16,471 nt of DNA. Origin: a bacterium (GTDB lineage: Bacteria > Eisenbacteria > RBG-16-71-46). Below, in pieces: positions 9,099 to 15,815 of the stretch. Position numbers and translations under genes: made by a program. A model generated the notes under the pieces. It was not told where the DNA came from. It searched no databases and was given only the letters and a program-made list of their open reading frames with translations. The stretch spans positions 1-16,471 of the forward strand of contig JAYWEM010000166.1 in NCBI GenBank assembly GCA_043779265.1, given 5' to 3'. Each line of letters opens with the position of its first letter. Position 1 is the first letter of the stretch.

Positions 9099-9893
9099 TC
9101 AGCGCCTGCGGCGACTCCGCCCACGAGAGGCCGTGGTGACCTCGGTCACCACGTAAGTGCCGCTGCGGTCGTCTTTTCGGAGGGTCAGCACCTTCGCTTG
9201 CTGGGCGTCCTCCAGCAGTTCGCTGAAGCTGTCGTACCCCAGCGCCCGCTCGCTGAACGCGGGGCGCTTGCGCTTGATGGTGTCCTTGATGAGGGAGGCC
9301 TGGATGGTCTCGAAACCCTCGCGCTGGAGCGCCCGGACCGTGTCCGCCACCAATCGGAACGCCTCGGCCCCGCCTTCGACCGGCTTCTGGCTGGCGGGCT
9401 CCTGGGCGGACTCGGGCTCGAGGTCCTCGTAGTAGATGAACTCGTCGCAGCCATTGGCGAGGAGCGGCGAGGTCGAGGCCCGCATCCCGAGCCCGATGAC
9501 CCGCTTGCCGTTCTCCTTGAGCTTGGAGACGAGCGGTGAGAAGTCGCTGTCGCCCGAGACGATGACGAAGGTGTCGATGTGCTCCTTGCTCCAGGCGAGA
9601 TCCATCGCATCCACGACGAGCCGGATGTCGGCGGAGTTCTTGCCCGTCTGGGCACGCCTCGGGATCTCGATCAGCTCGACGCCGTTCTCATGCAGGGCCT
9701 TCGTGTACTCGCGAAAGCGGTTCCAGTCGGCGTAGGCGATCCGCACGAGGATGCGGCCCTTGTCGAGCAGCCGCTGCAGCACGCGCCGGACATCGAATGA
9801 CTCGTTGCCCTTGAGGCCCAGCGCGATGTTCTCGAAGTCGACGAACACCGCGAGCCGGAGCTGCGTGTCGGAAGAGCCGGAGGATGCGGGCAT
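9099..9893 (-). CDS. NYN-domain (LabA/DUF88, PIN-like) protein with C-terminal OST-HTH/LOTUS domain
   Basis: LAVFVDFENI, AYADW, GKNSADIRLVVDAMDL, IVSGDSDFSPLV and CDEFIYYEDL. C-terminus IKDTIKRKRPAFSERALGYDSFSELLE is OST-HTH-like. Start chosen at ATG 9893 behind AGGAAGG. Confidence 0.9.
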   Translation of the reverse strand: MPASSGSSDTQLRLAVFVDFENIALGLKGNESFDVRRVLQRLLDKGRILVRIAYADWNRFREYTKALHENGVELIEIPRRAQTGKNSADIRLVVDAMDLAWSKEHIDTFVIVSGDSDFSPLVSKLKENGKRVIGLGMRASTSPLLANGCDEFIYYEDLEPESAQEPASQKPVEGGAEAFRLVADTVRALQREGFETIQASLIKDTIKRKRPAFSERALGYDSFSELLEDAQQAKVLTLRKDDRSGTYVVTEVTTASRGRSRRRR

Positions 9894-10023
9894 GTGCGCC
9901 TTCCTGGCGCGGCGACCGACGGAGCGTGGTCGGTCGGCGCTGCGGGCGCCTGACGCCCGGGAGGAGGGATTTGCGGCAGTCGGCATCGGGCCGAACCGCG
10001 CAGGGGACCTCGGGAACGAGGCG

Positions 10024-10032
10024 ACCCTATCA
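10024..10032 (-). promoter_or_regulatory. Extended -10-like element (TGaTAGGGT), candidate promoter of the NYN gene, divergent from the K+ channel promoter
   Basis: Matches TGnTAnnnT inside the short divergent intergenic region. Confidence 0.35.
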
Positions 10033-10096
10033 CACGCCATCGCGCCCGCTCCGCCTCGCTGGCGATGTCCGCTTGGCGCGCTTAGGCTGCGCCCCC

Positions 10097-10978: not shown

Positions 10979-13468
10979 ATGTCCATCACCTCCGGTTCCC
11001 GCATCGCCCGCTATGAAGTGCGTTCCCTGCTCGGCCGCGGCGCGATGGGCGAGGTGTATCGCGCCTTCGATGACCGCTTGGGCCGTGATGTCGCCATCAA
11101 AGTGCTGCCGGCGGTGTTCAGCGCCGACGCCGAGCGCTTGAGGCGCTTCGATCAGGAGGCCCGCGCCGCGAGCGCCCTCAACCACCCCAACGTGCTGTCG
11201 ATCTTCGACACCGGCACGCATGAGGGCCAGCCCTACATCGTCTCCGAACTGCTCGATGGGGACACGCTGCGGGCACGGCTCTCATCGGGAGCACTGCCCG
11301 TGCGCAAGGTCGCCGAGTTCGGCATCCAGATCGCGCGTGGGCTCTCGGCGGCGCACGCCAAGGGAATCGTGCACCGCGACTTGAAGCCCGAGAACCTGTT
11401 CGTGACTCGGGACGGCCACGTCAAGATCCTCGACTTCGGGCTCGCCAAGTTGATCCGCAATGACGTGGATGCCCAGGTCCCGGGCGACTCGCTCGCCGCG
11501 ACGATGACCGAGGCCGGTCGCGTGCTCGGCACCGTCGGCTACATGGCTCCGGAGCAGGTTCGAGGCGAGCCGGCCGATCATCGGGCCGACCTCTTCGCGC
11601 TCGGCTGCGTCCTGTTCGAGGCGCTGAGCGGCTCTCCCCCGTTCCACCGCGACTCCGCCGTCGAGACGATGGCGGCGATCGTGCGCGAGGACCTGCCGTC
11701 GCTGCCGTTGGAGATCGAGCAGCAGAGCGCCGGACTGGCCGCGCTCATCCGCCGCTGCGTCGAGAAACACGTCGGCGAGCGCTTCGAATCGGCACGCGAC
11801 CTCGCCTTCAGCCTGGAAGCTGTGGGTTCGTTGACACAGTCCGTCGAGGAGGCTGGCGTTGCGGGCTCCGGCGCAGGCGCTGCGGACGTGGCCTACCAGC
11901 GCATCTCGTTCCGGCGCGGCTGCATCTGGTCGGCTCGGTTCACCTCCGACGCCCACTCGGTCATCTACAGTGCGAGTTGGGAGGGCAAGCCGCTCGAGAT
12001 GTTCTGGGCGCATATCGGCAATCCGGAGGCGCGCGCATTGGGGTTCCGCGACACCGATCTGCTCGGCGTCGCGCCCTCCAACGAGATGGCGATGCTGCTC
12101 CGCACCGAGTTCGTGACATCGTTCGATCGGCGCGGCACGCTGGCGCGAGTGCCGCCGATGGGCGGCGCCGCACGGGAACTCCTGCACGATGTGCATGCCG
12201 CCGACTGGAGCCCCGATGGCGCGCAGCTCGCAATCGTCCGTTGGAAGGAGGGCATGCTCCGGCTTGAATACCCGATCGGCAACGTGCTCTACAAGACCGC
12301 CGGGTGGATCAGCGGCGTCCGGATCTCCGCCGACGGGGAGCAGATCGCGTTCCTCGACCACCCGACACGCAACGCCGACTCGGCGACTGTGAGCATCGTG
12401 GACCGCCGGGGCGAGCGCCGCACACTCACCGAAGTCTGGGGCACGATGCGCGGCCTCGCGTGGTCCGCCGACGGCAAGGAGGTGTGGTTCACCGCCGATC
12501 GTGCCGGCGCTGCTCGCGGTCTGTACGCCGTGACGCTCGAGGGCTCGCTCCGCCGCGTGCTGCAGGTGGCGAGCAACCTGACGCTGCACGACGTGGCGCG
12601 CGATGGACGGGTGCTGCTCGCCCACGGCGCCGAGCGGGCGGGGATCAACGGCCAGGCCCCGGGCGACGAGCATGAGCGCGACTACTCATGGCTCGACTGG
12701 TCCCTGCTGCAGGACCTCTCGGCGGACGGACGGATGATCCTGCTCGATGAGACGGCCGAGGGCGGCGGCGAGAAGGGCTCACTCTACCTGCGTCCCATGG
12801 ACGGCTCCCCGGCGATCCGACTCGGCGACGGCTCCGCGCGCACGATCTCGGCGGATGGCCAGTGGGTGATCGGCGCCCAGTACGGCGGTTCACAGGGCTC
12901 GCTGCACCTGTTGCCGACTGGCGTCGGCGAGGCCCGCACGATCCCCACGGGCGATCTCTTCTGTCACTATCCGAGGTGGCTGCCGCAGCCGAACCAACTC
13001 GTCGTCTCGGCGAGCGAACCGGGCAAGGGAGTCCGCCTCTACCGCCTCGACACCGTGACGGGCGACCACGAGCCGATCACGCCCGAAGGCGTGGACTTCA
13101 TGGAGTTCCATGTGCTGCCGGGCGCCACGCACGTCGCGGCGATGAACTCCGACCAGGAGCATCGGACCTACGCGCTCGATGGCGGCGACTCGCTCGCGAT
13201 CCCGCATCTCGGCCGCACCGACCGCATCGTGCAGTGGCTGGGCGACTCGAATTCGGTGCTCGTCTACAGCACGAACGAACTGCCTTCGCGTGTCCAACGA
13301 GTCGATCTCGCGACCGGCGAGCGCACGCTGTGGCGTGAGATCACGCCTCCAGATCCGACGGGCATCTACCGGGTCGGCCGCCTCAAGGCGAGCCAGGACC
13401 TGCGTGCCTACGCGTACACCTACTACATGCAGCTGGTGGACCTGCACGTGGTCGAGGGGTTGCGCTAG
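10979..13468 (+). CDS. Hanks-type Ser/Thr protein kinase with C-terminal TolB/WD40-like (PD40) beta-propeller repeats
   Basis: LGRGAMGEVY, VAIK, HRDLKPEN, KILDFGLAK and GTVGYMAPE. Repeated WSPDG/SADG units in the C-terminal ~520 aa. Confidence 0.93.
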   Translation: MSITSGSRIARYEVRSLLGRGAMGEVYRAFDDRLGRDVAIKVLPAVFSADAERLRRFDQEARAASALNHPNVLSIFDTGTHEGQPYIVSELLDGDTLRARLSSGALPVRKVAEFGIQIARGLSAAHAKGIVHRDLKPENLFVTRDGHVKILDFGLAKLIRNDVDAQVPGDSLAATMTEAGRVLGTVGYMAPEQVRGEPADHRADLFALGCVLFEALSGSPPFHRDSAVETMAAIVREDLPSLPLEIEQQSAGLAALIRRCVEKHVGERFESARDLAFSLEAVGSLTQSVEEAGVAGSGAGAADVAYQRISFRRGCIWSARFTSDAHSVIYSASWEGKPLEMFWAHIGNPEARALGFRDTDLLGVAPSNEMAMLLRTEFVTSFDRRGTLARVPPMGGAARELLHDVHAADWSPDGAQLAIVRWKEGMLRLEYPIGNVLYKTAGWISGVRISADGEQIAFLDHPTRNADSATVSIVDRRGERRTLTEVWGTMRGLAWSADGKEVWFTADRAGAARGLYAVTLEGSLRRVLQVASNLTLHDVARDGRVLLAHGAERAGINGQAPGDEHERDYSWLDWSLLQDLSADGRMILLDETAEGGGEKGSLYLRPMDGSPAIRLGDGSARTISADGQWVIGAQYGGSQGSLHLLPTGVGEARTIPTGDLFCHYPRWLPQPNQLVVSASEPGKGVRLYRLDTVTGDHEPITPEGVDFMEFHVLPGATHVAAMNSDQEHRTYALDGGDSLAIPHLGRTDRIVQWLGDSNSVLVYSTNELPSRVQRVDLATGERTLWREITPPDPTGIYRVGRLKASQDLRAYAYTYYMQLVDLHVVEGLR

Positions 13469-13559
13469 GCACAGGCGGCGTTCATCCCCGACGGGCTCGC
13501 ACCCGAGCGCAAAGCGCCACGGCGGCCCTCGCCTGGCCAGGGGGACCCCGGGTAAGAAC

Positions 13560-13591
13560 TGGAGGCGGCGCCCGGATTCGAACCGGGGAAT
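13560..13591 (-). tRNA. 3' fragment of a tRNA (most like tRNA-Cys): T-arm, acceptor 3' strand and CCA; probable att-site duplication, not a full gene
   Basis: Minus strand ATTCCCCGG-TTCGAAT-CCGGG-CGCCGCC-T-CCA: canonical T stem-loop, U73 discriminator, encoded CCA. No GGCGGCG 5' acceptor strand, D-arm or anticodon arm at the expected upstream position. Confidence 0.85.
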
Positions 13592-13679
13592 CGGTGGCAA
13601 TTGGGAAATCCAGCGGGAACACCGGAAGGCGCTGAGGGGGCCGTGGACGGCCGCGTAGGCCGCGGCGCGCGCGAGCCCG

Positions 13680-14084
13680 GGGCCGCACGCCGCGTGCGAG
13701 GCCAGTTGACGGTTTGGCGCGGTACGGGGCCGCCTTTACCCCGTTCACGGGAAGAACGTCGGCCACCGGGGGCCACTGCCAGAGTTGGCGCGCGGAGGAA
13801 CTTCTGGGGGCGTCGGGCGTGCCGCCAGCAGAAGCGTACGCGCCGCAGCCGGCCCCGGGGAACGCCCGGCCGTCTGCTTCCTAGCTACGGGTTGTCCACT
13901 TCCGCGGCTAGGCCCGCCACCTCGGGTGAAGGGAGCGTGCTCCCACCGCGGGCAGCCTGTTCGAGGCTGGCGGCGGCGGATTGCCTTTCGAGCCTCGCGT
14001 CGGGTGTCAACGGAAACGCGCATCACGGAGCGCAGGCCCTCGCTCATCGGGGCAGGAGCGGGTCAAGTTTGCCCTTCCTGTTTT
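13680..14084 (+). ncRNA. Candidate structured non-coding RNA or long cis-regulatory leader (unclassified)
   Basis: No credible ORF. Consecutive hairpin domains at 13684-13698, 13724-13744, 13787-13844, 13845-13877, 13880-13912, 13913-13952 and 13953-13969. Ends in a hairpin followed by TTTT. Confidence 0.45.
14053..14084 (+). terminator. Intrinsic-terminator-like hairpin with short U-tract
   Basis: CAGGAG-c-GGG...CCC-TTCCTG followed by TTTT. The stem is imperfect. Confidence 0.4.
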
Positions 14085-14225
14085 AGACCGTAGCTGTCCC
14101 GTCGCGACGGGCACGCAATCGCCCGTTCGATCGACGGCTTGAAGAATCACACCTTCCACCTCCACGAGCGCATCGCCGCCATTCGAGCTGCGAGGCTTAG
14201 GCCGCGTAGGCCGTAGGAAGCGCCC

Positions 14226-15008
14226 ATGCGAAAGGATTGCTCGACCCTCGGAGTTCAGCTCGACAACGTTCCAACGATCAACCTACGGAACGAGTTCGTC
14301 TGCCACCTCCATCTGATGAGGCAGACCGAGTTCCGAGACGCGTTCCACAAGCGAGGCGTGATCCAAACACCCTTCTTCACGTGGCACGGATCGCCGGAAG
14401 AGGCGCTCTCGCTGATGGTGCAACGCGCGGTCGCCGGGCTCGAGGCGTGGATCGTTGGCGCGGCCTGGTCCGAGTTGGCCGCCACGGGTCGCATCGCGAC
14501 CCACATTAAGTCTGTCCGGAACCCCGCCTCGCTCTCCGGCAAGGGGATGGCCGAGAAGTACTACTGCTCGCTTCCCGGCCTCGTGTACGCGGAAGTTGCT
14601 CTCGATCGAGCAGACCCTGCGCTATGGAGCCGCACCCAGGTCCTTTACCGGGAGATCCGCAACCCGCTCATGCACGGCTACCAGATTGATGCCGCCTCCG
14701 TGGACGGTGTACTCGAGTGCTTCGAGCACGTCGCGAAGCTCTTTCGATGGACCGACACCTGGCACGACTGGGTCTTTCAGCACCCACCATGGACGGCACC
14801 GATCCACATCATGGCCCGGCGCCTCCTGCTGACGCTTCAGCCTGAAATGGCGCTCGATGCCGAGGATGTGCGCACGACCATTAGCGACTTTGTGCGCGAC
14901 GGCCGATGCTCTCCTGTTCCTGAGCATGAACTCGACCTAATCCAGACGCTTGCCGACCTACTCGCGTGTGCCCGCCGTCACGAAATCCCGCCGCCCTGCT
15001 CAGCGTGA
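14226..15008 (+). CDS. Hypothetical protein with a HEPN-like RxxxxH motif (putative RNase/toxin)
   Basis: 260-aa ORF with AGGAAG RBS and globular, helical-looking composition. LYREIRNPLMHG (R145-N146...H150) with an upstream helical Glu (RAVAGLE73AW). Confidence 0.65.
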   Translation: MRKDCSTLGVQLDNVPTINLRNEFVCHLHLMRQTEFRDAFHKRGVIQTPFFTWHGSPEEALSLMVQRAVAGLEAWIVGAAWSELAATGRIATHIKSVRNPASLSGKGMAEKYYCSLPGLVYAEVALDRADPALWSRTQVLYREIRNPLMHGYQIDAASVDGVLECFEHVAKLFRWTDTWHDWVFQHPPWTAPIHIMARRLLLTLQPEMALDAEDVRTTISDFVRDGRCSPVPEHELDLIQTLADLLACARRHEIPPPCSA

Positions 15009-15074
15009 CGGGAGCGCGAGCAAATTGCGGTAGGCTGAGCGTCACCATCACCATCACAAGCATGAGGAAGCCCA

Positions 15075-15815
15075 GTGAATCCTGAGTTAAGCGCCGCGAT
15101 GGAAACCGTCCGCCACATGATCCTGTGTCTCGGCGGGGCTCAGGTCGTCGTCGTTGGCCTGATTGTCTGGTTCGGTCAGCTTTGGAGAGACCGTCAGCTT
15201 GCAAAGGAGCGGGCCGCCATTGAAACCCGGCTCGCCGACCACAATCACGCTCTTGAGCTGAAGCTTGAGGGCTACCGACTTGAGATCAATGGCGCCCTGG
15301 CCCACTACACGGCTCGCACGGGTCTACTTTCCGAGCTTCAACTCAAGGCCACCGAAGAAATCTGGGGCAAGCTCTTTCGCGTCCAATGGGACGTCGTTCG
15401 TCGCTTGTCGCCGCTCCAGTCGGTGCGGAATGATGGTCCTGGGTTCCCGAATCCCGAAGAACTGCGCGAGGCGTACTTCAAACAAATGCAGGAAGAGTTG
15501 GGGAAGCTGGATGCAGCTCGCCTCGAATTGCTCGAGGTGGTTCATGCGCGTCGCCCCTTCCTGCCGAAGACCCTGTTCGACGAGATGGAGCAGTACAACG
15601 GGCTCTTGTTCGAGACTGTCACGCTGCTTCAGCATCACCTTGAGGATGAGCGCGAGCCCACTCCCGGCGAGGACCGCGATGCCGCGGTGGAGCGCCGGAA
15701 GGGCCATCGAGTGAAGCGCGAGGACTTCGTCAAGCGACTCTCAGACAAGCACGACAAGATAGCCGAGGAGATTCGAGCCCTGACGAGCCCTCCGCCTCCG
15801 AGCTCACTCGAGTAG
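15075..15815 (+). CDS. Hypothetical protein: single N-terminal transmembrane helix followed by coiled-coil/helical domain
   Basis: GTG start behind GAGGAAG (alternative ATG 15099). Hydrophobic ILCLGGAQVVVVGLIVWFG, then heptad-like LAKERAAIETRLADHNHALELKLEGYRLEI. TAGGCT -10-like hexamer at 15031-15036. Confidence 0.75.
   Translation: MNPELSAAMETVRHMILCLGGAQVVVVGLIVWFGQLWRDRQLAKERAAIETRLADHNHALELKLEGYRLEINGALAHYTARTGLLSELQLKATEEIWGKLFRVQWDVVRRLSPLQSVRNDGPGFPNPEELREAYFKQMQEELGKLDAARLELLEVVHARRPFLPKTLFDEMEQYNGLLFETVTLLQHHLEDEREPTPGEDRDAAVERRKGHRVKREDFVKRLSDKHDKIAEEIRALTSPPPPSSLE

Follow-up and report, generated by a model that had tools for sequence, protein, structure and literature searches.

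The window analysed here is a stretch of 16,471 nt and constitutes an entire contig (C166) of a 3.43 Mb genome with 68% GC. Host genes extend to a Ser/Thr kinase gene with WD40-like repeats (10979–13468, + strand, assigned by Pfam), which flanks the element described below; G002, a genome of the same genus, carries its orthologue in the corresponding position. Beyond the window's kinase gene lie an attachment scar, a displaced duplicate of the last 32 nt of tRNA-Cys(GCA) terminating in CCA (13560–13591, − strand), a region of approximately 630 nt, and two genes on the + strand, ORF1 (14226–15008, 260 amino acids) and ORF2 (15075–15815, 246 amino acids). ORF1 is predicted to be a HEPN-fold RNase (residues ~1–180) with a clade-specific C-terminal domain, and ORF2 is modeled with one N-terminal membrane helix, a long helix or coiled coil, and a four-helix bundle (85–242). 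A convergent ORF that runs off the contig (16112–16471, − strand) probably represents the 3′ portion of another cargo gene; it had no Pfam, PADLOC, or PHROG match and no counterpart among 41 loci of the ORF1 family, and a 94% identical piece of it is present in sequencing run X3. In the host part, the ORF at 9099–10040 (− strand) presumably encodes a protein resembling NYN-domain proteins with a C-terminal LOTUS/OST-HTH part.

Genomic islands integrated in tRNA genes carry a duplication of the tRNA 3′ end. In this locus, both such a duplication at the boundary and an empty site in a relative were found. The scar is the same as the intact tRNA-Cys genes of relatives at 31 of 32 nt, and in G002 the orthologous kinase gene is followed directly by an intact tRNA-Cys; therefore, G002 represents the empty site and the window the insertion. 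Contigs from two public sequencing runs stop at 13589 and start at 13562, as would be expected because a 32-nt repeat produces such breaks; the second of these public contigs is 3733 nt long and extends approximately 820 nt beyond the window. The GC content drops from approximately 69% in the host part to 59 to 64% across ORF1 and ORF2, and this lower-GC cargo, the displaced tRNA-Cys copy, and the occupation of the same site by islands in five relatives examined all resemble known tRNA-integrated islands. No intact tRNA-Cys was found in this assembly, and the far end of the element and any integrase lie off the contig. The sequence thus supports the locus as cargo at the end of a tRNA-Cys-integrated element, in agreement with the initial annotation, which had proposed both the att scar and this end-cargo position.

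Comparison of the tRNA-Cys sites in stretches from six relatives showed that four have an intact tRNA-Cys and a second, displaced copy 3 to 17 kb away, one has the scar only, and one is an empty site. In the host's family, tRNA-Cys is an insertion hotspot, with islands of 3 to 17 kb in L091–L095 (genomes G030, G022, G010, G032, and G019). A short CAATTGG-type motif adjoins the scar in these islands, and a tandem series of decayed scar-like copies is present in G019 and G022. The inner end of the window's element, the attachment arm (13592–13729), is common to other such islands: 13559–13729 is 85% identical over 171 nt to G030:C20:214491-214660, and shorter matches of 45 to 81 nt including the scar were found in G010, G019, G022, and G032. 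The G030 island (L091:2751-17898), 16.6 kb in size and with the same element end as the window, carries ZacB and ZacC, a 1780-amino-acid SNF2-type helicase, and three further ORFs; a PADLOC search with 10 of its proteins gave two strong matches and one generic match, and neither ORF1 nor ORF2 was found in G030. The ORFs predicted in these islands of the relatives included no integrase, so the islands may be mobilized by an integrase acting from elsewhere.

The structural model of ORF1 shows a four-helix fold with the sequence R145-N-P-L-M-H150 (14658–14675, + strand), identified by alignment and in the model, at the end of helix 3 (residues 131–149), where a loop follows. E73 (14442–14444, + strand) lies in the helix spanning residues 57 to 86. 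In the family alignment, R145 and H150 are both present in 138 of the 143 rows covering the motif and N146 in 135, and E73 is found in approximately 100% of 144 rows and is invariant across 103 full-length members; the K or R of an Ex3[KR] form is absent after E73. In PMC3710099, HEPN domains are defined by an Rx4-6H motif with a polar residue (N, D, or H) after the arginine and by an acidic residue in an upstream helix, and ORF1 agrees with that description both in where E73 lies and in having its motif at a helix end. Among solved structures, the nearest folds are those of HepT toxins from HEPN–MNT pairs (PDB 6m6u, 5yep, 7ae2, and 8xdj) at 4 to 13% identity; compared with HepT, the ORF1 core of approximately 180 residues has an extra N-terminal part. 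Both ORF1 and ORF2 are under purifying selection (dN/dS 0.06–0.19; 0.15 for ORF2). Sequence and model together support ORF1 as a member of the HEPN superfamily with an intact E…RNxxxH motif and predicted RNase activity. The HEPN-like character assigned to ORF1 at the outset was therefore confirmed by its fold and intact RNase motif; the RNPLMH motif was likewise found, at residues 145 to 150, but the gene is not an orphan, as 181 representatives of its family were collected at E ≤ 0.001.

The clade to which the window belongs adds a tail of approximately 65 residues to the HEPN core, whereas, of the 118 family members whose domain end can be recognized, 106 have a tail no longer than 40 residues. 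The modeled domain within it (residues ~191–254; 14796–14987, + strand) has a fold resembling acyl carrier protein (ACP) without the conserved serine, which we treat as a lead only. The tail had no Pfam or PDB sequence match, and its profile alignment with 21 ACP-type sequences scored no better than shuffled controls (7 of 60 as high). In an alignment made by eye, the position of the DSL serine is occupied by serine in one of six sequences, and the tail has neither a PP-binding match nor the DSL serine for phosphopantetheine. The tail is most plausibly a clade-specific add-on with a regulatory or sensing function. It is very unlikely, though conceivable, that it is a serine-less ACP mimic that lures phage proteins targeting or hijacking host ACP, so that their capture would activate the RNase, while ORF2, as a membrane-anchored partner, would tether or restrain the complex at the membrane.

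The ORF1 family is unnamed and was captured by no Pfam, NCBIfam, or PADLOC model; a PHROG scan also misses it. Loci from 41 metagenome and 36 genome sequences were assembled, which together with the window and after removal of eight near-duplicates gave 70 nonredundant loci. The spread is patchy: the 36 genome loci are distributed over many phyla, and a search of 205 other genomes of the window's phylum found none. No member was found in viral contigs or phages. A second clade of approximately 300 residues (P0010, P0027, P0097, and P0098; L006, L010, L013, L017, L019, and L020) has a different conserved C-terminal extension of approximately 100 to 120 residues with no library match; P0074 carries TPRs, and one full-length member matched AAA/NACHT models. 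In six nonredundant loci (L041, L048, L072, L075, L076, and L077/L078), the gene is split into several ORFs or truncated, and therefore it appears to be often lost or broken.

Of the 64 loci in which the gene start was usable, 11 have an attC-like site (score ≥ 10) no more than 45 nt upstream or 60 nt downstream of the gene, compared with 0.7% and 1.3% of 1220 random places each. With a stricter attC fold test, sites were found downstream of 3 of 68 family genes versus 6 of 172 other ORFs, the latter six being located in three cassette-array-like loci. The window's own copy is not a cassette. In L047 (L047:5579-10574), an array of six attC-like sites includes cassettes for the HEPN gene and for PDC-S31, and no integron integrase was seen in that locus.

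All-against-all clustering of the ORFs of 78 loci revealed no neighbor recurring in more than five nonredundant loci. The most frequent neighbor was a tyrosine recombinase (five loci), and the others were methylases, transposases, and genes common to related hosts. No partner or inhibitor gene was found family-wide, the exception being ORF2 in three loci of the close clade. For PADLOC, we used 119 neighbor proteins from 52 loci (118 of the 177 called plus one), omitting those that were distant or plainly housekeeping. At E ≤ 1e-20, matches were obtained in 15 of the 52 loci, of which three were generic (DinG, a kinase, and FtsK) and 12 were to restriction–modification, Druantia, Tin, or PDC genes, two of these 12 being related loci. 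Among 20 random 7.6-kb host windows, five had a PADLOC match, all judged partial or generic; raw PADLOC rates in the family loci were no different from this control. The association of the family with defense genes is thus suggestive. The same defense context includes the Mrr-type nuclease and MTaX1-HNH genes beside L002 and L004 and the ZacB/ZacC genes of the G030 island. The defense role originally proposed is plausible. In one locus, a C4 antisense RNA (L073:6669-6756, − strand) lies approximately 1.2 kb upstream of the family member, which suggests a phage or satellite remnant there.

Several characterized HEPN systems were compared with ORF1. HepS (HEPN Solo), from the Salmonella Gifsy-1 prophage, is a single-gene HEPN defense; according to PMC13043305, HepS is a tetramer that is activated by a phage tail-tip peptide and cleaves tRNA anticodons, leading to abortive infection. 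The ORF1 family similarly lacks a conserved partner gene. It differs from HepS, which is often prophage-borne, in occurring in integron-like cassettes and islands, and the family profile had no sequence match to HepS-type PDB chains at E ≤ 10. A further difference is that the window's clade has the extra tail and a linked membrane gene, its activity being predicted here. In Vibrio cholerae, Esos and Taranis each consist of one HEPN gene that is carried as an integron cassette and acts against phages (bioRxiv 10.1101/2024.07.02.601686). Esos resembles the ORF1 family in being a HEPN-only gene carried as a cassette, as the 11 loci above appear to be. Taranis matches Pfam Abi_C, and no ORF1 family member does so among the 25 of 33 families listed.

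Two other assignments were rejected. HEPN–MNT pairs have an adjacent nucleotidyltransferase gene, and none was present in the window or recurred in the 70 family loci, which rules out ORF1 as the toxin of such a pair. In AbiF/AbiD, as given in bioRxiv 10.1101/2025.04.15.648962, an Abi_2 protein is linked to repeated abiF motifs forming a cis-encoded RNA; the RxxxxH-bearing HEPN domain of ORF1 and the noncoding DNA upstream resemble that arrangement. However, for 103 members searched at E ≤ 0.1, Abi_2 was not among the listed matches, which comprised 25 of 33 families (each with one member only), no Abi_2 or AbiF match was found in NCBIfam or PADLOC either, and the abiF motif RF03085 was absent from the window and 20 family loci. 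Unlike AbiF, ORF1 has no repeated stem-loop motif and no conserved RNA–gene linkage, and on these three grounds (Abi_2, abiF motif, and linked RNA) ORF1 was ruled out as an AbiF.

With confidence that is evenly balanced, we favor the interpretation that ORF1 is a stand-alone HEPN RNase, off at rest, that aborts infection once a phage product activates it. The computational basis for this comprises the fold, the motif, purifying selection, the absence of a conserved antitoxin gene or RNA, single-gene mobility, and the cargo position; the defense genes near family members and the patchy distribution over phyla also favor it. A member of an unnamed and widely scattered family, ORF1 would be carried as cargo at the end of the tRNA-Cys element and would most likely act as HepS or Esos do. 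By analogy with known HEPN proteins, it may assemble into dimers or tetramers, with composite R/H sites that stay inactive in the resting state; a phage protein would bind it and switch the RNase on, and cleavage of tRNA or mRNA would then stop the infected cell.

ORF2 offers the main alternative. Its hydrophobic segment starts at residue 15 (Kyte–Doolittle 19-mer mean 2.36) and is followed by a long helix, and a single N-terminal hydrophobic segment was present in all seven full-start ORF2 sequences tested, so that the transmembrane and coiled-coil description given earlier stands. The model (pLDDT 71.6) matches only generic four-helix bundles; eight homologues were found, and the protein falls in unnamed Atlas clusters at 0.93 to 0.94. 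ORF2 lies 3′ of ORF1 in 3 of the 70 loci, some of which are short, and all three (the window, L002, and L003/L004) belong to the close clade, with gaps of 44 to 67 nt between the genes. One may suppose that in this clade the two genes form a system in which the HEPN protein is bound by ORF2, possibly via the extra tail, and ORF2 restrains it or senses infection at the membrane. The succession of ORF1 and ORF2 in three different genomic settings, despite a dS of 0.8 to 1.0 and a spacer that cannot be aligned between loci, favors this, as does the restriction of both tail and ORF2 to the same clade. However, in L005, which is 66% identical and tail-bearing, the 331 nt available 3′ of ORF1 contain no match to ORF2, ORF2 is missing from the other 67 loci, most family members have at most a short tail, and linkage at approximately 80% identity could be simple co-inheritance. 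We regard a two-gene system as rather unlikely. The earlier suggestion of ORF2 as a sensor or partner therefore holds as far as its linkage to ORF1 in the close clade, but not as an obligatory component of the family. The best explanation for ORF2 is a co-oriented, membrane-anchored gene gained and kept by the clade, either as a second independent defense gene or as an optional helper.

Alternatively, ORF1 could be a stress or addiction toxin, or act against plasmids rather than phages, as cargo that helps to retain the element. That HepT toxins are the closest solved folds is in line with this idea, and the element that carries the pair in L002 (L002:1-14116) also encodes ParA, ParB, a 484-amino-acid ORF, and a replication-relaxation protein; moreover, the tRNA-Cys island L093 contains a small two-gene pair that, judged from sequence, resembles a toxin–antitoxin module. 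Addiction requires a labile antitoxin, though, and neither a nucleotidyltransferase nor any other antitoxin gene recurs beside the family, so we consider such a role unlikely. On the L002 element, the ORF1–ORF2 pair is also located beside MTaX1-HNH and an Mrr-type nuclease.

ORF1 might also be functional cargo outside defense, for example in RNA turnover or processing, or be retained for other reasons. Many family loci have housekeeping neighbors, and the raw PADLOC rates, which do not differ from those of the control, fit this. Against it, the ORF1 family is scattered over phyla, occurs as cassettes, and swaps domains (TPR and other extensions), all of which is characteristic of conflict genes (PMC3710099). 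A function outside defense appears improbable to us.

The remaining explanation concerns the DNA upstream of ORF1, for which the initial annotation had proposed an RNA antitoxin. All ORFs inside the region between the scar and ORF1 have negative composition scores, indicating that it is noncoding, as had been stated; it measures approximately 630 nt rather than 400 nt, and its structure is no greater than expected by chance. The minimum free energy compared with shuffled sequences gave z = 0.15 for 13640–14225 and z = −0.11 for 13730–14200. For 13900–14200, a subwindow picked after the scan was seen, z was −1.83 on one strand, where 4 of 100 shuffles did as well, and −0.99 on the other, and the best of 40 window/strand values for sliding 100-nt windows was −2.04. 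Perfect hairpins with stems of at least 6 bp numbered 6 versus 2.4 expected (p = 0.04), and those with stems of at least 5 bp numbered 12 versus 7.9 (p = 0.09), so that any surplus of short hairpins in this DNA of 68 to 73% GC is weak at best. Inside the attachment arm lies the first copy (13649–13662, + strand) of an exact 14-nt direct repeat, GGCCGCGTAGGCCG, whose second copy (14200–14213, + strand) is immediately 5′ of the ORF1 ribosome-binding site; only these two copies, flanking the noncoding stretch, exist in the whole genome. G030 has a one-letter variant of the first copy at the equivalent place, and our guess is that the repeat may be a recombinase arm or recombination site. A low-depth contig of run X4 tracks the window from 13593 to 13665 only, ending just beyond the first copy.

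Downstream of the attachment arm lie a GC-rich unique spacer and the ORF1 leader (13730–14225). This part had no Rfam match at E ≤ 1, was absent from the 205 other genomes of the phylum, and had no match in plasmids or phages; six of the 205 genomes match the noncoding stretch, but only in its first 135 nt, in the element end. The noncoding stretch as a whole had no tandem motif array, and a scan that is blind to other promoter types found no sigma-70 consensus promoter and no + strand terminator. In L002 and L003/L004, whose ORF1 is 79 to 83% identical, the DNA matches the window only from inside ORF1 onward, and a divergent Mrr-type nuclease gene sits upstream instead, so that the initial annotation's own condition for refutation, homologues with unrelated upstream sequence, is what was observed; MTaX1-HNH is near this nuclease gene in L002 and L004, and L004 also has a methylase and an integrase. 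When 58 upstream regions of family members were compared, using automatic gene starts of which some are placed too early, five pairs had common DNA and none of the 57 others shared that of the window. In L060, the family gene begins 3 nt past the preceding gene. Run X4, from another study at a depth of about 3, contains an approximately 97% identical piece over 14141–14310, so that at least 85 nt of leader stay joined to ORF1 in a near-identical copy, as with any leader. The near-identical ribosome-binding contexts of the two genes are present as described, but are replaced by other AGGA/GGAG contexts in relatives with 76 to 83% identity. These data do not support the upstream stretch as part of a conserved module, and it is best read as the attachment end of the element followed by a spacer and leader rather than as an antitoxin RNA. 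That a structured RNA upstream neutralizes the HEPN protein, in the manner of AbiF or type III systems and with ORF2 acting as the sensor, is therefore extremely improbable: the length of noncoding DNA, the hairpin excess and low z value of the subwindow, the bracketing repeat, and the leader kept in X4 speak for it, whereas the whole-region z of about 0, the missing Rfam match, array, promoter, and terminator, the different upstream DNA of the closest relatives and of the family at large, the 3-nt spacing in L060, and the occurrence of the 5′ part in G030 without either gene speak against it. The two genes and the scar are real, but the new RNA-regulated three-part system initially envisaged is not supported.

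If ORF1 is protective against phages, it would add a HEPN family that is missed by Pfam, NCBIfam, PADLOC 2.0, and a PHROG scan. How partner-less HEPN RNases stay off and switch on has been answered so far for HepS, and the approximately 180 divergent representatives, which are tail-less, TPR-fused, or tail-bearing, form a natural series on the control of such enzymes. The ACP-like tail, if real, would be an unusual sensor.
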